Source: an uncultured Acidobacteriota bacterium (lineage in GTDB: Bacteria > Acidobacteriota > Vicinamibacteria > Vicinamibacterales > 2-12-FULL-66-21). Taken from it: a DNA stretch of 64,000 nt. Positions 8,542-17,634 of this stretch are shown here, piece after piece. The position numbers and the translations under genes were made by a program. A model generated the notes under the pieces. It saw only the letters and a program-made list of their open reading frames with translations, had not been told where the DNA came from and did not search any database. Within the stretch, counting starts at the first letter, position 1, and every line of letters begins with the position of its first letter. The stretch lies in NCBI GenBank assembly GCA_963797625.1, contig CAWCQI010000027.1, positions 192,774 through 256,773 of the forward strand. Direction: 5' to 3'.

Positions 8542-9210
8542 GTGACCCTGCTCCAGATTCCGGTGGCCGGAGTTCGATCCCAAAAGGTCACCTTCAGGAC
8601 CGACGATGGCCTGACGCTCGCCGCAACGTGGTTCGAGCCATCCACCCGGCCGGCCCCGGCAGTCATTTTCGTGCACATGCTGCAGAAATCCCGCCGCGAC
8701 TGGGAAGGCCTTGCCGCACAGTTCGCGGCCGAGGGCATTGGCGGACTGGCCATCGATCTCCGTGGTCATGGCGAGTCGGCCGGCAGCCCGCAGGACTATA
8801 CGGGCATGGTCCAGGACGTGCGAGCCGCTCGGCGCTTTCTCTCGGCGCGCGCCGAGGTGACGCCCTCGCGCATCGGGATCGCCGGCGCATCGATTGGCGC
8901 GTCACTCGCGGTGCTTGCGGCGGTTGACGATCCGTCGGTCGCCAGCCTCGCGCTTCTCTCACCGTCGCTCGACTATCGCGGCCTCCGCCTGGAGAGCGCG
9001 ATCAAGAAGTACGGCGCGCGCCCGGCGCTCCTCGTGGCGAGCGACGACGATGGATATGCCGCGCGGTCCGTGCGTGAGCTGCAAAAGGCGGGTGGCGGCA
9101 GTCGCGAGGTCGTCGTGCTCAGCCGTGCCGGCCATGGTACCGCAATGTTGACGGGCGATTCGGCTCTCGGCCAGCGCCTCCTGGAGTGGTTCCGACGAAC
9201 GCTGCTATGA
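8542..9210 (+). CDS. alpha/beta hydrolase; 5' end uncertain
   Basis: IDLRGHGES and nucleophile elbow GASIG. In-frame upstream codons read WLVAAAVVTLL (signal-like) but have no start codon. ATG 8499 lies one frame back, so a further +1 indel near 8515 is possible. Confidence 0.6.
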   Translation: MTLLQIPVAGVRSQKVTFRTDDGLTLAATWFEPSTRPAPAVIFVHMLQKSRRDWEGLAAQFAAEGIGGLAIDLRGHGESAGSPQDYTGMVQDVRAARRFLSARAEVTPSRIGIAGASIGASLAVLAAVDDPSVASLALLSPSLDYRGLRLESAIKKYGARPALLVASDDDGYAARSVRELQKAGGGSREVVVLSRAGHGTAMLTGDSALGQRLLEWFRRTLL

Positions 9211-9245
9211 TCGAACCGCGGTCATCCCAGGGCATCCTCTAGAGC

Positions 9246-9272
9246 CACGGATCACACGGACAACACGGATCG
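9246..9272 (+). repeat. three tandem CACGGAYMA 9-mers downstream of the hydrolase gene
   Basis: cacggatca cacggacaa cacggatcg. Same unit as at 16846-16925, 20424-20458 (minus) and 60058-60081 (minus). Confidence 0.8.
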
Positions 9273-9290
9273 GGTTGTGAGATAGCTTTC

Positions 9291-9909
9291 GTGTCACGAG
9301 ACTCAGTCATCTTCGGCCTCGCCGGCGTGTTCTTCGGCATTCTCGTCGGCTGGATCATCGGCAGCCAGCAGAACGCCGCGCCGCGCGTCGCCACTCCGGC
9401 GGCAGAACGGCGCGGCCAAGTCAGGGCAGTCGACGGCGGCGCCGCTCGACGAGTCGCGCGCGGCCGCGCTGGCCCAGACGGCAAAAGGCAACCCGCAGGA
9501 TGCCGCGGTGCGACTCGAGCTCGGCAACCTCTATTTCGACTCGGAGCGCTTCGCAGATGCCGCGCGCTGGTACGAGCAGGCGATCGCCATCGAGCCGCGC
9601 AACGTCAGCGCCAGCACGGATCTCGGCATCAGCTACTACTACATGAACCAGCCCGATCGCGCGCTCCAGCAGTTCGACCGCTCGCTGGCGATTGACCCGC
9701 GTCACTCCAAGACGTTGCTGAACGTCGGCATCGTGCGCGCGTTCGGGAAAGACGATCTGGAGGGGGCCGCCGAGGCGTGGCAGCGGGTCGTGGAGTATGC
9801 GCCGGACTCGGCCGAAGGGAAGCGCGCGAAACAAGCCCTCGACAGCCTTCGCAGCGCGCATCCCAACCTGCCGGGAGGCGGTGGCGGGAGCGGCAAACCT
9901 CCAGGATAG
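9291..9909 (+). CDS. membrane-anchored TPR-repeat protein; +1 frameshift ~9400
   Basis: TM helix VIFGLAGVFFGILVGWIIG (frame of 9291) joins ..QNGAAKSGQSTAAPLDESRAAALAQTAKGNPQDAAVRLELGNLYFDSERFADAARWYEQAI (frame of 9508). TPR-like repeats follow. Confidence 0.65.
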
Positions 9910-9911
9910 CC

Positions 9912-10164
9912 ATGGTGCTCCGCCTCCTTCAGCTCCTCTTGCTCCTGGCTGTCGCACGAGCGGTCTGGCGACTCGCCAAGGGTGTCCTCGAAGGCGCGGG
10001 CTACCGACGCGTCGATGGTCCCGTGCAAAGTCGGCGTGAAGCTCGAGCGCGATCCCGTCTGCGGCACTTTCGTCTCGCCGGCCAAGGCGCCAGTACTCCG
10101 GATCGGTGGAGAGACGCTGTACTTCTGTTCGGACCGGTGCCGCCGCGAATGGGAACGCCGGTGA
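9912..10164 (+). CDS. membrane-anchored YHS/TRASH-type Cys-rich metal-binding domain protein; +1 frameshift ~10000-10025
   Basis: ATG 9912 sits 2 nt after the TPR stop. MVLRLLQLLLLLAVARAVWRL (TM helix) lies in frame 0. DPVCGTFV..YFCSDRCRREW lies in frame 1 (ORF 9982-10164). Confidence 0.55.
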
Positions 10165-10167
10165 TGC

Positions 10168-11025
10168 ATGGCTGACCGCTCAGAAGCCCAGCACCGCGCC
10201 GACATCGTCGAAGTCGGTCGCCGTCTTTATGCGCGCGGCTACACCGCCTCGAACGACGGCAACATCAGCCTCCGGCTCGACGCGTCGCGGCTGCTGATGA
10301 CGCCGACCAACGTCTGCAAGGGGTTCATGACCGTCGAGATGATGTGCATCACCGATCTCGACGGGAAGAAGATTGCCGGCGAGCGCAATCCGTCCTCCGA
10401 AATGCAGATGCACCTCGAGGTCTACCGCCAACGTCCCGAAATCCAGGCGGTGGTCCACGCACACCCGCCCATCGCCACCGGCTTCGCGGTCGCCGGTATC
10501 CCGCTCGATCGCGCGGTGCTTGCCGAGGTCGTCACCACGCTCGGGAGCGTGCCGATCGCCGAGTACGCGACGCCCTCGACCCGCGAGCTGCCTGAGGCCG
10601 TGCGCAAGTACGTCAAGGCGCACGATGGCATGCTCCTCGCCAACCACGGCGCGCTGACGCTCGGCGCCGACGTGTTCTCGGCCTACTACAAGATGGAGAC
10701 GATCGAGCACTTCGCCAAGATCAGTCTGGTGGCGCGAATGCTCGGCGGCGAGCGCCTGCTGTCGCGCGAGGAGGTCGCGCGGCTCGAGAAATTGCGCGGC
10801 TCCTACGGGATCGCCGCGCCCGCGCCGATCTGTCCCGAGCCCTCCGCCGCTGACCCGCTCGATTGCCAGGTGGTTCAGGCGCCATCGTCGACGCCAGGCG
10901 AGCGACTGGTTCCCCGGTCGCCCTCGGTGCGGCCGGGATCCGGCGTAGGCCCTGATGAGGAAATTCGGCTAACATACAGCGAGTTGACGGCGCTCATCGA
11001 GGACGCCGTACGAAGTCTCAAGTAG
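10168..11025 (+). CDS. class II aldolase/adducin-family enzyme (FucA/RhaD-like) with C-terminal encapsulation-peptide-like helix
   Basis: Zn/catalytic residues present (SSEMQMH, VVHAHPP, LLANHGALTLG). A ~55-aa Pro/Ser-rich linker follows, then the terminal amphipathic helix LTYSELTALIEDAVRSLK. Confidence 0.8.
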   Translation: MADRSEAQHRADIVEVGRRLYARGYTASNDGNISLRLDASRLLMTPTNVCKGFMTVEMMCITDLDGKKIAGERNPSSEMQMHLEVYRQRPEIQAVVHAHPPIATGFAVAGIPLDRAVLAEVVTTLGSVPIAEYATPSTRELPEAVRKYVKAHDGMLLANHGALTLGADVFSAYYKMETIEHFAKISLVARMLGGERLLSREEVARLEKLRGSYGIAAPAPICPEPSAADPLDCQVVQAPSSTPGERLVPRSPSVRPGSGVGPDEEIRLTYSELTALIEDAVRSLK

Positions 11026-11139
11026 CTATCAGCCATCAGCTGTCAGCTCTCAGCTCTCAGCTGGCGACAGTCGGACGACAAGACAGAATCACTAACAGCG
11101 GCGAGCTGACAGCTGAGAGCTGATAGCTGAGAGCTTTTT
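11024..11139 (+). terminator. long imperfect hairpin of AGCTNTC 7-mers followed by a T5 tract (terminator/attenuator-like) inside the BMC operon
   Basis: Left arm 11024-11063 and right arm 11104-11135 pair at about 28 of 32 positions. The loop is ~40 nt. ttttt at 11135-11139 lies just before the BMC-H RBS ggagg. Confidence 0.5.
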
Positions 11140-11152
11140 GTGGAGGCAGCAC

Positions 11153-11446
11153 ATGGGTGAGGCGCTCGGGATGGTCGAGACCAAAGGTCTCGTCGCGATG
11201 ATCGAGGCCGCGGACGCGATGGTCAAGGCCGCCAAGGTCACGCTCGTCGGCTGGGAAAAGATCGGCGCGGGTTATGTGACGGCAATCGTGCGCGGCGACG
11301 TCGCCGCAGTGAAGGCGGCGACCGACGCCGGCGCCGCCGCGGCGCGGCGCGTCGGAGAGCTCGTATCGGTGCACGTCATTCCGCGTCCGCATGCCAACCT
11401 CGAGGACGCGCTGCCGATCGGAAAGGCGACCGCAAGCGCGAAATGA
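11153..11446 (+). CDS. BMC-H shell protein (PduA/EutM/CcmK-type, single BMC domain)
   Basis: [63 protein letters not shown] ggagg at 11142-11146; ATG at 11153. Confidence 0.9.
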
Positions 11447-11715
11447 TCCTGGCGAAGATTGTCGGCACCGTGGTCGCCACGCGCAAAGACGACCGGCTGC
11501 TGAGCAGCAAGCTGCTCGTCGCGCGCCCGATGGATCCCCGAGGGAAGCCCGAAGGCAGCTACCTGGTAGCCGTCGACACGGTTGACGCGGGCGTCGGCGA
11601 GACGGTGCTGATCGTCAGCGGCAGCTCGGCGCGCATGGCCGCCGGCCTCAAGGATTGCCCGGTCGATGCCGCCATTGTCGGCATCGTCGATGCGATCGAA
11701 GTCAGGGAAACGTAA
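11443..11715 (+). CDS. BMC-P vertex protein (EutN/CcmL family), paralogue 1
   Basis: [71 protein letters not shown] overlap with BMC-H. Confidence 0.9.
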
Positions 11716-11993
11716 TGCAGCTCGCTCGTGTCATCGGTGAGGTCGTCGCGACGATGAAGGACGCGAATCTGGCCGCGTCGAAACTGCTGGTACTGCAGCC
11801 GCTGACTGCCGCCGGCGAGCCGGTCGGCCGCACGCTCGTCGCGCTCGATTCAGTCGGTGCGGGCGTTGGCGAGAACGTCTTCTTCGTCCGCGGCCGGGAG
11901 GCCGCGTTTCCGTTCTATCCCGCCGAGCCGCCGACCGACGCGTCGATCATCGGGATCGTCGACTACTGGCACACCGAGAGCGGCGGCGCCTAG
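11715..11993 (+). CDS. BMC-P vertex protein (EutN/CcmL family), paralogue 2
   Basis: [57 protein letters not shown]. Its ATG shares a base with the upstream TAA stop. Confidence 0.85.
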   Translation: MQLARVIGEVVATMKDANLAASKLLVLQPLTAAGEPVGRTLVALDSVGAGVGENVFFVRGREAAFPFYPAEPPTDASIIGIVDYWHTESGGA

Positions 11994-11997
11994 GCCA

Positions 11998-12277
11998 ATG
12001 CAAATCGCGCGTGTGGTCGGTACCGTGGTCTCCACGCAGAAGAACCGGAAGCTGGAGGGCGCCAAGCTGCTGCTCGTCCAGCCGCTGTCGATCGATGATG
12101 CACCGCGCGGCGTCCCGCTCATCGCGATCGATTCGGTGGGCGCCGGCATCGGCGAAAAGGTGCTGGTGGTGATCGAGGGCAAGGCCGCCGGGCGACGCGC
12201 TCGGCAAGAAAGCCGCCGCGGTCGATGCCGCGATCATCGGGATCATCGATACAATTACTTGCAATGCTGAATGCTGA
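11998..12277 (+). CDS. BMC-P vertex protein (EutN/CcmL family), paralogue 3; +1 frameshift at ~12190-12193
   Basis: MQIARVVGTVVSTQKNRKLEGAKLLLVQP..IAIDSVGAGIGEKVLVVIEGKAAG, then frame 2 gives DALGKKAAAVDAAIIGIIDTITCNAEC. The extra base lies in a ggg run. The stop codon sits inside the repeat at 12261-12342. Confidence 0.8.
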
Positions 12278-12342
12278 GTGCTGAATGTAAATGATGAATT
12301 CAGCATTTACTTCAGCATTCAGCATTCAGCACTCAGCATTGC
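12261..12342. repeat. 82-nt near-perfect palindrome of GCTGAAT/GCTGAGT heptamers centred on gaattc
   Basis: The arm gcaatgctgaatgctgagtgctgaatg matches the reverse complement of cattcagcattcagcactcagcattgc with 2 mismatches in 27. Lies between BMC-P3 and the small Cys protein. Confidence 0.85.
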
Positions 12343-12354
12343 AAGGATCAGCAT

Positions 12355-12564
12355 ATGGATGAACAGGCACTGCGCGCGATGGTCCGCGAGGCGGTGGCGA
12401 AGCGCCTGCAGACGCCCCAGCCGGTTGCGCCCGCCGCCCCCGCGGCCTTCTCGGCGCATGTGAGCCACATCCGCTACGTGCTGCCGAAGTCCGATGGGCC
12501 CTGCCTCATCGAACCGACCGTTTCCTGCAACCACTGTGGCTACTGCGAATCGCACGGACACTGA
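12355..12564 (+). CDS. small BMC-associated protein: N-terminal encapsulation-peptide-like helix, Pro/Ala linker, C-terminal C-x8-C-x2-C-x2-C motif
   Basis: MDEQALRAMVREAVAKRLQ (amphipathic), then TPQPVAPAAPAAF, then PCLIEPTVSCNHCGYCESHGH. GC3 counted by eye over 12481-12561 is 21 of 27 in this frame, against 13 of 25 in the overlapping frame. Confidence 0.6.
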   Translation: MDEQALRAMVREAVAKRLQTPQPVAPAAPAAFSAHVSHIRYVLPKSDGPCLIEPTVSCNHCGYCESHGH

Positions 12565-13525
12565 TTCGCGCCCTCGCGTCCTCCTGACCCGCCGGATCCC
12601 CGCGTCGGTCCTGTCGAAGCTCGAAGCTGGCTGCGACGTCGAGCTGTATGACGGCGGGGCGCCGCTGACGGCCGCCGAGCTCGTCAACCGGCTGCAGGGC
12701 AAGCAGGGGCTGGTCTGCGTCCTGACCGATCCAGTGAATGCAGACGTGCTGGCGGCGGCGCCGGATCTGAAGGTCGTCGCCAACATCGCCGTCGGTTACG
12801 ACAACATCAACGTCGCGGCCGCTCACGCGCGACACATCGTCGTGACCAACACACCTGACGTGCTGACCCAGTCGACCGCCGAGTTCACGTGGGCGCTGAT
12901 TCTGGCGGTGACGCGCCGGCTTGTCGAAGGCGAGCGGTTGGTGCGCAGAGGCGGCTGGAAGGGGTGGGCGCTCGACTTCATGCTCGGCATGGAGCTCGGC
13001 GGCAAGCAGCTCGGGATCATCGGCAGGGGACGGATTGGCCGCGCGGTCGCGGCCCGCGCGCCGGCATTCGGCATGACGGCGGTCTTCATGGCGAGAGAGG
13101 GACGGCCTGCCCTCGACCTGCCCGAGATGTCGCTCGACGAGCTGCTGGTCAGCTCGGACGTCATCTCAATCCACACGCCGCTGACGCCGTCGACTCGACA
13201 CTTGATCGACAAGCGAGCGCTGGCCCGGATGAAGCGGTCGGCGTATCTCGTCAACACGGCGCGCGGACCGGTCGTCGACGAAGAGGCGCTCGCCTGGGCG
13301 CTCAACGAACACTTGATTGCCGGCGCCGCGCTCGACGTCTACGAGAAGGAACCTGAAGTCTTCGCCGGGCTCCTCGGCCTCGAGAACGTCGTGCTGGCGC
13401 CGCATCTTGGCAGCGCCACGCGCGAGACGCGGACGGCGATGGCCGATCTTGCCGTGTCGAACGTGCTCGCCGTCCTTCACGGCCGTCCGGCGCTGACGCC
13501 TGTCACGCCGCGGACGGGACCCTAG
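12494..13525 (+). CDS. D-isomer-specific 2-hydroxyacid dehydrogenase (GyaR/HprA-like); 5' end unresolved
   Basis: Conserved core starts at RPRVLLTRRIP (~12571). LGIIGRGRIGRAVA (GxGxxG), NTARG, LDVYEKEP, APHLGSAT. No ATG/GTG lies just upstream of the core. ATG 12494 and GTG 12536 overlap the small ORF in a low-GC3 frame. Confidence 0.8.
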   Translation: MGPASSNRPFPATTVATANRTDTDSRPRVLLTRRIPASVLSKLEAGCDVELYDGGAPLTAAELVNRLQGKQGLVCVLTDPVNADVLAAAPDLKVVANIAVGYDNINVAAAHARHIVVTNTPDVLTQSTAEFTWALILAVTRRLVEGERLVRRGGWKGWALDFMLGMELGGKQLGIIGRGRIGRAVAARAPAFGMTAVFMAREGRPALDLPEMSLDELLVSSDVISIHTPLTPSTRHLIDKRALARMKRSAYLVNTARGPVVDEEALAWALNEHLIAGAALDVYEKEPEVFAGLLGLENVVLAPHLGSATRETRTAMADLAVSNVLAVLHGRPALTPVTPRTGP

Positions 13526-13610
13526 AAGCCATTTCACTAATGGCGCGAACGAGCGTAGCGAGTGAGCCACGCGATCGGAGCGCGCCGTCGCCAGCGGCGC
13601 GCGAGAGCGC

Positions 13611-14357
13611 GTGTCGGGGAGTCCGAGGGGCGAAGCCCCTCGGGTAAGACTAGACCAGGTGCCCCTGCCGCCGCAGCCGAAGGTTCCGCGCGGGCGCATC
13701 GCCGCGGTGATGCGCCGCCTGGCGAAGGCGATCGATGGGCTCGACGAGCCGGCGGTCGAGAAGATCGCCGCCGAGCAGCATGACGATCCGTTTCAGGTAC
13801 TGATCGCGACCATGCTGTCGGCGCAAACGCGCGATGCCGTCACGGCCTCAGCATCGAGGCGTCTGTTCCGGGCCGCTCGTACTCCGCGTACGATCGCCAG
13901 GCTGCCGACGGCGCGCGTCGAGGCGCTCATCTACCCCGTGAGCTTCTATCGAAACAAGGCCGTGCACGTCGTCGAGACCTGCAAGCAGCTCCTCGAACGC
14001 TTTGACGGCCGCGTGCCGCCGACGATGAACGACCTGCTGACGCTGCCGGGGGTCGGCCGCAAAACGGCGAACCTGGTCCTGATTCTCGCGCACCGCAGCG
14101 CCGACAACATCTGCGTCGACACGCACGTGCATCGCATCTCGAATCGGCTTGGCTGGGTGCGGACCCGGACGCCGGAAGAGACCGAGCGCGCGCTCTATCG
14201 AGTGGTCGAGCAGCGCTGGTGGCCAGTCGTCAATTTGTACCTCGTGACCTGGGGACAGAACGTCTGTCGGCCGGTGTATCCCCTATGCGGGAGTTGCGCG
14301 ATTGCCGATCTATGCCCCAGAATCGGCGTGACCCGGGTGGGGAAGGCTGCCAAGTGA
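13611..14357 (+). CDS. nth: endonuclease III (DNA glycosylase/AP lyase)
   Basis: LIATMLSAQTRD, HhH-GPD LPGVGRKTANLVL, VDTHV, and Fe-S cluster C-x6-C-x2-C-x5-C (CRPVYPLCGSCAIADLC). The true start is probably at MRRLAKAI (13710). Confidence 0.85.
   Translation: MSGSPRGEAPRVRLDQVPLPPQPKVPRGRIAAVMRRLAKAIDGLDEPAVEKIAAEQHDDPFQVLIATMLSAQTRDAVTASASRRLFRAARTPRTIARLPTARVEALIYPVSFYRNKAVHVVETCKQLLERFDGRVPPTMNDLLTLPGVGRKTANLVLILAHRSADNICVDTHVHRISNRLGWVRTRTPEETERALYRVVEQRWWPVVNLYLVTWGQNVCRPVYPLCGSCAIADLCPRIGVTRVGKAAK
13623..13643 (+). terminator. GC-rich 8-bp hairpin downstream of the dehydrogenase gene (no U tract)
   Basis: ccgagggg cgaag cccctcgg. It lies inside the nominal 5' end of ORF 13611, which argues for a later nth start. 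Confidence 0.3.
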
Positions 14358-14363
14358 GGACCT

Positions 14364-14900
14364 ATGAAACTGATTGCGTGCGCACTGGGCGTCTTGTTGT
14401 TGATGCCCTCGACCGTCAACTCTGAACAGACATCTCCAGGTGCCGGGCCGATCATCGTGCTCGACACCGCCAAAGGTGTCATCGAGATCGAGACCTACCC
14501 GGAGGAGGCCCCGAAGACCGTCGCGCACGTGCTCGCGCTCATCAAGAAAGGGTTCTACAACGGCCTGAGGTTTCACCGCGCTGAAGCGGGATTCGTGATT
14601 CAGGTCGGCGATCCGCAGACGCGTGACATGACGAAGCAGTCGTCGTGGGGCACGGGAAGCAGCGGCACGCCGATCGGCGTCGCCGAGATCACGAAGAAGC
14701 GGCGGAATGGCCCTGGCGCCGTCGGCATGGCTCACAGCGGTTCGGCCAAAGACGCGTCGAGCCAGTTCTACATCACGCTGCGCGCTGCACCGACGCTCGA
14801 CGGAAAGTTTGCCGTGTTCGGCAAGGTGATCAAAGGGCTGGACGTTGCCGCCAAGATCCAGAAAGCCGATGTGCTCAAGAAGGCTTCGGTGAAGGAATGA
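14364..14900 (+). CDS. cyclophilin-type peptidyl-prolyl cis-trans isomerase, secreted
   Basis: Signal peptide MKLIACALGVLLLMPS; FHRAEAGFVIQVGDP, GAVGMAH, QFYITL, FGKVIKG. Confidence 0.85.
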   Translation: MKLIACALGVLLLMPSTVNSEQTSPGAGPIIVLDTAKGVIEIETYPEEAPKTVAHVLALIKKGFYNGLRFHRAEAGFVIQVGDPQTRDMTKQSSWGTGSSGTPIGVAEITKKRRNGPGAVGMAHSGSAKDASSQFYITLRAAPTLDGKFAVFGKVIKGLDVAAKIQKADVLKKASVKE

Positions 14901-16153: not shown

Positions 16154-16200
16154 GTCCGTATTGTACGTCTCGGACGCGGTACAATTGCTGTTTGGTCCCG

Positions 16201-16842
16201 ATGCTGACGATCAACGAGATTTTCCACTCGATTCAGGGAGAGTCGACCCATACCGGCCGGCCCTGTGTCTTCGTCCGCCTGACCGCGTGCGACCTGCGCT
16301 GCTCGTGGTGTGACACGCCGTACGCGTTTCATGAAGGCCGGAAGATGAGCATCGATCAGGTCGTCGCCGATGTGGCCGCGTTCGAGTGTCCGGTGGTCGA
16401 GATTACCGGTGGTGAGCCACTGCTCCAGCCAGACGTCTATCCCCTGATGAGCGAACTCCTGCAGCGGGGCCATACGGTCCTCCTCGAGACCGGTGGTCAC
16501 CGCAGCGTCGCGCAGGTCCCCGCTGGCGTCATCCGGATCATCGACGTGAAGTGTCCGGCGAGCGGCGAGTCAGCGAAGAACGACTGGTCGAACCTGGATC
16601 TCCTGACGCCGACCGACGAAGTCAAGTTCGTGGTGCAGGATCGGCAGGACTACGAGTTCGCAAAGGACGTGATCAGGCGGCACGCGCTCGAAGGGCGGTG
16701 CGCCGCGATTCTGCTGTCGCCCGTGCACGGTGTCCTGCCCGGCCACGAGCTCGCGGCGTGGATCCTCGCCGACCGTCTCCCGGTCCGGCTGCAGTTGCAG
16801 GCGCACAAGTACATCTGGAGCGCGGATGCCCGAGGCGTCTGA
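16201..16842 (+). CDS. queE: 7-carboxy-7-deazaguanine synthase (radical SAM)
   Basis: MLTINEIFHSIQGESTHTGRPCVFVRLTACDLRCSWCDT (CxxxCxxC). The ORF opens at TTG 16192; ATG 16201 preferred. Confidence 0.85.
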   Translation: MLTINEIFHSIQGESTHTGRPCVFVRLTACDLRCSWCDTPYAFHEGRKMSIDQVVADVAAFECPVVEITGGEPLLQPDVYPLMSELLQRGHTVLLETGGHRSVAQVPAGVIRIIDVKCPASGESAKNDWSNLDLLTPTDEVKFVVQDRQDYEFAKDVIRRHALEGRCAAILLSPVHGVLPGHELAAWILADRLPVRLQLQAHKYIWSADARGV

Positions 16843-16845
16843 CGC

Positions 16846-16925
16846 CACGGATCACACGGATCATCGCCACGGATCAATCGGAACATCGATCACGGATCCA
16901 CGGATTACACGGATTACACGGATCA
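16846..16925 (+). repeat. array of about seven CACGGAT(C/T)A 9-mers filling the queE-queC spacer
   Basis: cacggatca cacggatca tcgc cacggatca atcggaacatcgat cacggatc cacggatta cacggatta cacggatca. Direct repeats with no complementary arm. Confidence 0.85.
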
Positions 16926-16926
16926 G

Positions 16927-17634
16927 ATGAGTCACACGGAGGACCAGAGCGGTCGGCGAGCCATCGTGCTGCTCAGCGGCGGCCTCGACTCGTTCACTGC
17001 CGCGGCGATGACGAAGTCCGAGGGCTATGAACTCTACGCCCTCAGCATCCGCTACGGCCAGATCCATGCGCGCGAGATTGAGGCGGCGCGCGCGGCGGCA
17101 CGCGCGCTCGGCGTCGCCCGGCATCTCGAGCTCGCGGTCGACCTCGCGGCGTTCGGTGGCTCGGCTCTCGTCGGTGACGGCACGATTCCGAAGGATCGCG
17201 CGCTCGAGAGCGATCACAGCATCCCGTCGACCTACGTGCCCGCGCGCAACACTGTCTTTCTCTCGCTAGCGCTCGCCTGGGCCGAGGTCGTCGGCGCAAC
17301 CGCCATCGTCATCGGCGTGAACGCGCTCGATTATTCGGGGTATCCAGACTGCCGGCCTGAGTACCTCGAGGCCTTCGAGCGCATGGCCGCACTCGCCACC
17401 AAGGCCGGCGTCGAAGGCCGGCCGCTGCAGATCCTGGCGCCACTCCTGCGTCTGTCGAAGGCCGACATCATCCGACGCGGTCTCGCGCTCGGGCTCGATT
17501 ACGCGGTCACCCACAGTTGCTACGACCCGGCGCCGTCTGGCGCGCCCTGCGGCCGTTGTGACAGTTGCCGCCTGCGAGCGAAGGGATTCGCAGAAGCCGG
17601 TGTCGCCGACCCGGTGATCGGGGGACATTCGTGA
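16927..17634 (+). CDS. queC: 7-cyano-7-deazaguanine synthase
   Basis: PP-loop [11 protein letters not shown]; C-terminal zinc cysteines [14 protein letters not shown]. Confidence 0.9.

Follow-up and report, generated by a model that had tools for sequence, protein, structure and literature searches.

A small gene of 69 codons followed by a TGA stop lies at positions 12355 to 12564, on the forward strand, of a 64,000-nucleotide stretch of DNA from an uncultured, Vicinamibacterales-like bacterium of the Acidobacteriota (contig CAWCQI010000027.1, positions 192,774 to 256,773; the whole of this stretch is referred to below as the window). The gene is part of a bacterial microcompartment (BMC) cluster in which the order abhydrolase, tetratricopeptide repeat (TPR) protein, 83-aa protein, aldolase, BMC-H shell protein, three BMC-P shell proteins (P1, P2 and P3), small gene, dehydrogenase, nth and peptidyl-prolyl isomerase (PPIase) is conserved across the 80 species-representative loci that were compared. 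These loci were retrieved by searching with the small protein itself, and all come from records labelled Acidobacteriota or Vicinamibacterales. The position of the small gene after the third BMC-P gene is the same in 80/80 of them. Based on its reading frame, homologues, conserved position and the selection acting on it, the small gene probably (at roughly three in four) encodes the short encapsulation-peptide (EP) protein of the BMC type known as ACI, as an independent conserved gene of the main locus whose product combines an EP helix, a tether and a knob with four cysteines (Cys4). The gene is present in every ACI locus retrieved, a result to be read with the manner of retrieval in mind. 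A first-pass annotation of the DNA had given the 69-aa open reading frame (ORF) and its sequence correctly and had offered two readings of it, one as the frameshifted N-terminal extension of the dehydrogenase and the other as a free-standing, EP-tagged redox or metal mini-protein. The outcome at the site is neither a hidden fusion nor an assembly artefact, and the feature is one already in the literature.

The small ORF behaves as a real coding gene, since synonymous changes far outnumber non-synonymous ones in its own frame and the relation is reversed out of frame. When 82 distinct orthologous sequences are compared in pairs over their last 21 codons, the codon differences in frame are synonymous in 25,005 cases and non-synonymous in 10,126; the same codons read in the +1 frame give 3,304 synonymous and 32,328 non-synonymous differences. 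By this measure the ORF's own frame is subject to strong purifying selection, and the ORF is far more than a chance one. The earlier view that the ORF is coding right up to its TGA had been argued from GC content at third codon positions, and both counts used are exact (21/27 codons for the frame of the small ORF, 12481-12561, and 13/25 for that of the dehydrogenase, 12494-12568); the assignment of the small ORF to frame 1 and the dehydrogenase to frame 2 is correct. A Shine-Dalgarno (SD)-like AAGGA is visible on the same strand at 12343-12347; its distance of 7 nt from the ATG at 12355, on the upstream side, suggests that the small gene is initiated independently.

The neighbouring genes identify the type of compartment. 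The signature enzyme is a class II aldolase (10168-11025, forward strand; Pfam PF00596) with a C-terminal EP, EIRLTYSELTALIEDAVRSLK, at 10960-11022, a tail that is conserved in about 80 loci. It is followed on the same strand by a BMC-H shell protein (11153-11446, with the start as called in relatives; PF00936) and by the BMC-P triplet (11443-12277; 11443-11715, 11715-11993 and 11998-12277, each matching PF03319), the third member of which contains a 1-nt insertion at about 12190. The ACI type, with 125 loci, has been catalogued by Sutter, Melnicki, Schulz, Woyke & Kerfeld (2021, Nat Commun 12:3809, Suppl. Data 2; PMC8217296), who list for it a very short EP protein (about 80 aa), restricted to Acidobacteria, with an N-terminal EP, a C-terminal domain in which three or more cysteines are conserved and no known homologues. 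The locus of the published protein and that of the small gene share the aldolase (PF00596 with C-terminal EP), the dehydrogenase (PF00389/PF02826), BMC-H, the BMC-P triplet and the phylum, and the two proteins share shortness, an N-terminal EP and C-terminal cysteines; nothing essential differs between them. Locus composition, a length of 69 aa, the lack of a domain match, the cysteines and the acidobacterial origin of the loci all agree with membership. The small protein is thus not a new observation, having already been published as a protein without an assigned function (PMC8217296). The present analysis adds the exact Cys4-His signature, a resemblance to a zinc lobe, the independence from the dehydrogenase and the overlapping start of the dehydrogenase. 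Compared with the published description, there are four cysteines and not three, conserved in this clade at 98% or above with fixed spacing, and a near-invariant C-terminal Gly-His. ACI microcompartments, as yet wholly uncharacterised, occur widely in soil Acidobacteria; a search of the literature after 2021 found no characterisation of ACI BMCs.

Homologues of the small protein are free-standing proteins of 68 to about 130 aa. A single-sequence search returned 195, every one of 56-98 aa, and searching 1.84 billion representatives exhaustively with a profile returned 255, the best 150 of which span 40-192 aa. A profile search of a 5.8-billion-protein set matched 3253 clusters, the best 120 of which are again short proteins. 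No credible dehydrogenase fusion was seen among the homologues listed (the 195, the best 150 of the 255 and the best 120 of the 3253). Of the few longer homologues, some owe their length to long repeat linkers and the others to upstream run-on or to frameshifts that join them to BMC-P3, on contigs full of errors. Apparent long fusions (P0341, P0233, P0175, P0216 and P0161) were rejected as frameshift or run-on artefacts. Pfam and NCBIfam scans of the 69-aa protein and of 141 family members, the latter being the representatives (at most 50% mutual identity) from which the conservation profile below was computed, matched no model, and no structural neighbour was found for the small protein.

The protein can be divided into three parts, all encoded on the forward strand. 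The first is an N-terminal helix (residues 3-19; 12361-12411), predicted by AlphaFold2 (AF2) to span residues 3 to 18 or 19 with a pLDDT of 86-92, and following the consensus M-x-E-x-E-L-R-A-L-V-R-x-A-I-A-R-H-L, in which R7 (97%), R11 (92%) and V10 (80%) stand out. The second is a tether rich in Pro, Ala, Gly and Ser (residues 20-34; 12412-12456) without any conserved column, the length of which varies across the family from about 13 to about 75 residues, repeat expansions included, and which is the source of the range in protein length. The third is a Cys4 (+His) putative metal-binding module (residues 35-69; 12457-12561) with the signature HxSH...GPC-LIEP-x-V-x-C-x-H-C-G-Y-C-x-S-x-G-H-COOH, recognised from conservation, the AF2 model and a profile comparison with the PDB. 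With the family alignment, the AF2 model reaches a mean pLDDT of 82 overall and 83-89 in the module, where a hairpin (51-57) and a short helix (63-65) are predicted. The four cysteines are nearly invariant (C50 99%, C58 98%, C61 99%, C64 99%), which answers in the positive the earlier question of whether the cysteine motif is present in orthologues. Conservation is also high at H35 (85%), S37 (94%), H38 (84%), I52 (87%), E53 (98%), P54 (96%) and V56 (89%), and further on at H60 (87%), G62 (90%), S66 (91%), G68 (99%) and H69 (92%), with H67 not conserved. The first-pass annotation was right about the number of cysteines and the two x2 intervals, but the x8 interval it gave was wrong; the true spacing is C-x7-C-x2-C-x2-C, followed by x4-H-COOH.

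The EP label for the helix, taken from PMC8217296, agrees with several features of the protein. As in metabolosome cargo EPs, there is a terminal helix of about 16 residues (about 15-20 being the range expected of an EP) followed by a poorly conserved linker, within a BMC operon. The N-termini of PduP and PduD are EPs of metabolosome cargo, and that of PduD contains LLRQIIEDVL, which the small-protein pattern LRxhhx[DE]xh resembles. Unlike the PduP and PduD EPs, however, the helix of the small protein carries a 35-residue putative metal knob and not an enzyme, and its amphipathicity is not statistically marked. Two results weigh against an EP function. The Eisenberg hydrophobic moment of the helix is 0.187, below the shuffle mean, so that amphipathic describes only a visible stripe of L6/M9/V10/A13/V14/L18; the moment of the aldolase EP is 0.537 (p about 0.01). 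In addition, hidden Markov models (HMMs) of the aldolase EP and of the small-protein helix fail to detect one another in a search of the 1102 ORFs of the window (E = 2 and 92), the two sharing only the visible pattern L-x-A-L-[IV]-x-[DE]-A-[VI]. The EP architecture claimed in the first-pass annotation therefore holds for the confident helix and the variable linker, but its amphipathicity lacks statistical backing. As far as can be judged from sequence, the second of the two original readings, that of a free-standing EP-tagged metal or redox mini-protein, is supported.

The nature of the metal can be approached through likeness to known sites. When the profile of the C-terminal domain was compared with all PDB sequences, only the structural-zinc lobes of medium-chain dehydrogenases (MDR) were matched, namely 5vm2 (residues 89-101, IEPGVPCGHCRYC; E = 0.0011), 1e3j (E = 0.018) and 3m6i (E = 1.2). 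The shared stretch of 13 residues, [IV]EPxVxCxxCxxC, comes with a histidine at +2 and an aromatic residue at +5 of the cysteine triad, and the spacings x2, x2 and x7 are the same. The structural lobe of the MDR enzymes is arranged as C-x2-C-x2-C-x7-C around Zn, with the fourth cysteine 7 residues after the triad. In the small protein, by contrast, the remote cysteine stands 7 residues before the triad, the chain ends 5 residues after it and there is no MDR fold; with this permuted order the site falls outside the MDR-lobe type of Zn(Cys)4 site, although it may work alike. That the match covers 13 residues at borderline E-values, with the fourth cysteine on the opposite side, counts against the zinc assignment and makes it a resemblance and not homology. 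The ligand order of the small protein is found in QueC of the window (C-x9-C-x2-C-x2-C), a pattern that forms a Zn(Cys)4 site in solved QueC structures (B. subtilis). Both have an upstream remote cysteine and then CxxCxxC, but QueC is a 235-aa enzyme with x9 in place of x7, and the two are similar in their cysteines only.

The comparison with ferredoxins is less favourable. The Fer4 models of Pfam gave no usable match (3/141 members at E 0.2-0.7), and of the 4Fe-4S ferredoxin pattern CxxCxxCxxxCP only the CxxCxxC core is present, the chain ending 5 residues later. The matches to zinc lobes, the lack of a Fer4 match and the end of the chain where a ferredoxin has its C-P together favour a zinc knuckle, and a structural-type Zn(Cys)4 site is, from the sequence, the preferred assignment at somewhat better than even odds. 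It is opposed by the fact that CxxCGxC is the core of the ferredoxin motif too, and a small Fe-S cluster is a lesser though considerable candidate on the same grounds.

A more specific proposal based on the Fe-S assignment is that the protein is a lumen-targeted mini-ferredoxin, relaying electrons between the cargo and Fe-S shell pores of PduT/PduS type. The CxxCGxC core with a remote cysteine is a classic ligand pattern for a cubane, the conserved H35, H38, H60 and H69 could provide mixed Cys/His ligation, and PduS/PduT pairs occur occasionally as ACI satellites (PMC8217296). However, PduS and PduT are merely occasional in ACI, whereas the small gene is in every locus examined, and the main locus has no obvious enzyme to donate or accept electrons. 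A module of 35 residues would also shield a cluster little, the C-P after the triad is missing, no Fer4 match is useful and the only significant PDB profile matches are to zinc lobes. An electron relay is for these reasons unlikely, though it survives better than the other alternatives.

The role favoured here for the small protein is to bind or bridge the aldolase/shell core in a metal-dependent way, as a small module that is neither an enzyme nor a dedicated carrier of the dehydrogenase. The N-terminal helix would attach the protein to the inside of the shell or to the core of cargo, which is what EPs do elsewhere among metabolosomes, and the tether would keep the knob in the lumen on a leash, free to roam. 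The knob would fold around one metal centre and, once folded, would bind the invariant core (shell or aldolase) and not the dispensable dehydrogenase. Targeting, metal content and partners are inferred for every family member, which speaks against placing too much weight on this scheme. Tethered Cys-rich domains are found on cargo of other uncharacterised BMC types: the MIC3 aldehyde dehydrogenase (AldDh) has a C-terminal linker and a domain of roughly 40 aa, the MIC6 oxidoreductase has a tail with four cysteines, and the EP protein of MUF2 has six (PMC8217296). These domains make a docking or bridging role plausible. MIC3 and ACI both pair a PF00596 aldolase with a BMC-P triplet and both have a linker with a small four-Cys domain, but MIC3 is without EPs; moreover, the MIC3, MIC6 and MUF2 domains are fused to enzymes and resemble the ACI knob by description only. 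The AldDh of the ACI type itself has a tail of roughly 50 aa.

In its most developed form, this proposal would make the small protein a bivalent metal-dependent assembly adaptor, with the helix on the shell or the EP-bearing cargo core and the knob on the aldolase, on a BMC-P or BMC-H surface, or on another knob via a shared metal. This form is speculative and has perhaps one chance in several of being right. If true, the knob together with the MIC3 and MIC6 domains would represent a second, EP-independent docking module of several BMC types, which might be switchable by redox state or metal. A knob that acts as a docking or metal-handling device would bear on the assembly or the metal supply of an aldolase-based metabolosome, and would offer engineers a very small cargo tag.

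The relation of the small gene to the dehydrogenase downstream bears directly on these proposals. The dehydrogenase (12536-13525, forward strand) is a D-2-hydroxyacid dehydrogenase of glyoxylate/hydroxypyruvate-reductase-like type, matching PF00389 and PF02826 in Pfam and, below cutoff, the NCBIfam glyoxylate reductase (3.7e-98). Its core, RPRVLLTRRIP, begins 4 nt after the TGA at 12562-12564, and the two candidate starts that had been noted before, ATG 12494 and GTG 12536, are the sole in-frame ATG, GTG or TTG codons upstream of the core. The conclusion drawn at the time, that the dehydrogenase lacks a start of its own, was mistaken, as GTG 12536 is conserved across the clade with overlapping genes and was chosen by gene callers in relatives. 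Situated at -29, it is the only start common to all 17 loci with the 4-nt arrangement of the window, whereas ATG 12494 is confined to the closest relatives. The GTG is built from the TGT codon of Cys61 and the first G of Gly62, and this codon is TGT in 17/17 overlap loci against 5/71 other loci, where TGC dominates. Translation of the dehydrogenase thus most likely starts, on this sequence evidence, at GTG 12536, with a 29-nt overlap with the small gene and a predicted N-terminus of M-ATANRTDTDSRPR. Two points tell against this start: the codon argument comes from a monophyletic overlap clade and may partly reflect descent, and the GTG is without a preceding SD. The overlap at a start codon lacking an SD makes translational coupling of the dehydrogenase to the small gene probable.

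This arrangement might indicate that the small protein is an in-trans encapsulation adaptor for a dehydrogenase that has no EP, with the knob binding the enzyme, the helix binding the shell and translational coupling setting a 1:1 ratio. The small gene lies immediately 5' of the dehydrogenase in 71/80 loci and overlaps it in the clade of the window, and the dehydrogenase is without any terminal extension. However, in 9/80 loci (L020, L023, L027, L028, L041, L055, L060, L086 and L087) the dehydrogenase is cleanly absent and the small gene, intact and with all four cysteines, is followed directly by nth. Eight of the nine could be placed on a tree of shell and aldolase sequences, where they occupy at least five separate positions, corresponding to at least five independent losses. 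The dehydrogenase is thus a dispensable accessory of the ACI type, encoded as a separate cistron. The retention of the small gene where the dehydrogenase has been lost makes a dedicated adaptor role improbable, and it is further opposed by the frequency of separate starts and of spacers of up to 348 nt, which means that coupling is not general, and by the lack of a Rosetta-stone fusion among the homologues listed.

Far less probable still is that the gene does not belong to the BMC at all, encoding instead the precursor of a ribosomally synthesised and post-translationally modified peptide (RiPP), with a leader helix and a Cys-rich core, or serving as a regulatory upstream ORF (uORF) of the dehydrogenase. 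Small size, a conserved N-terminal helix, a Cys-rich C-terminus and a radical-SAM gene 3.6 kb downstream would suit such a role, but the radical-SAM gene proved to be QueE, beside QueC, upon which the RiPP idea was dropped. There is also no maturase, protease or exporter in the conserved neighbourhood, the small gene keeps its place between the shell genes and the cargo, and amino-acid-level selection on the whole C-terminal module, along with retention in loci without the dehydrogenase, argues against a mere uORF. QueE and QueC themselves occupy 16192-17634 of the window.

The weakest reading is that the small ORF is a frameshifted N-terminal extension bringing EP and cysteines to the dehydrogenase, to be restored by removing one base near 12556-12562. 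In its favour, the dehydrogenase core follows the TGA by 4 nt in the +1 frame and has no EP of its own, and there are 1-nt insertion errors nearby. As far as sequence data allow, however, this reading is refuted. Four contigs assembled independently from other samples share the junction base for base, and a comparison with four close relatives shows no indel between 12292 and 13577. The small gene stops 5 residues past its last cysteine in every one of the 80 loci, and the distance from this stop to the dehydrogenase core varies from -7 to +348 nt and takes in all three frames. In L006, a locus on a 4.7-Mb contig, the spacer is 85 nt long and the dehydrogenase starts at a TTG of its own with an SD-like GAAGG. 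The dehydrogenase alone has been lost repeatedly, and no fused homologue is among the matches listed. No reading frame runs on into the dehydrogenase in the orthologues, and the question raised in the first-pass annotation of whether the two are fused or separate in orthologous loci is answered as separate wherever both occur among the 80.

The insertion artefacts that the first-pass annotation had seen across the window do exist nearby, but none falls within 12292-13577. Compared with the four close relatives, the TPR gene is broken by a window-specific 1-nt insertion at 9411, the 83-aa gene by one at 10026/10027 and BMC-P3 by one at 12190. These are probably errors of long-read assembly, and none is located within the small gene or the dehydrogenase.

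A long hairpin of inverted GCTGA[AG]T heptad repeats (12258-12345, forward strand) is predicted where BMC-P3 (stop at 12275-12277) gives way to the small gene, with its 3' end abutting the SD. Its predicted RNA fold has an energy of -55.7 kcal/mol (z = -7.25), and the repeat is matched 8 times in the window, where 0.32 matches would be expected. The same heptad array is found at 1423-1448 and, in L006 (6215-6260), between the small gene and the dehydrogenase. The hairpin looks like a lineage-specific intergenic element resembling repetitive extragenic palindromes (REP-like), which could affect mRNA stability or the ratio of shell to cargo expression.

Other observations concern the locus as a whole. 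Synteny outruns the recognisable BMC genes (8542-14900 in the window, and in all 80 loci), extending to the abhydrolase and TPR genes upstream and to endonuclease III and the PPIase downstream. A search of the window with PROSITE-style patterns found no aldehyde dehydrogenase and no second Cys module, with only QueC showing a similar cysteine pattern, so the ACI satellite locus lies outside the window. Among NCBIfam models the aldolase is matched best by 3-oxo-tetronate 4-phosphate decarboxylase (OtnC; E 3.6e-42, below cutoff), and the models for fuculose-phosphate aldolase rank behind it. An OtnC-like aldolase together with a glyoxylate/hydroxypyruvate-reductase-like dehydrogenase may hint at an acid-sugar (tetronate-type) substrate and not one of fucose/rhamnose type. 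Directly 5' of the aldolase, 78/80 loci have a conserved gene for a protein of 82-89 aa (about 9913-10164 in the window, where it is frameshifted; 3554-3805 in L001), with an N-terminal hydrophobic helix and a putative metal-binding domain of YHS/TRASH-like kind, which the YHS model of Pfam matches with E-values of 2e-5 to 2e-3, short of the cutoff. This would be a second small putative metal-binding protein encoded there, possibly among the ACI proteins listed as unknown.

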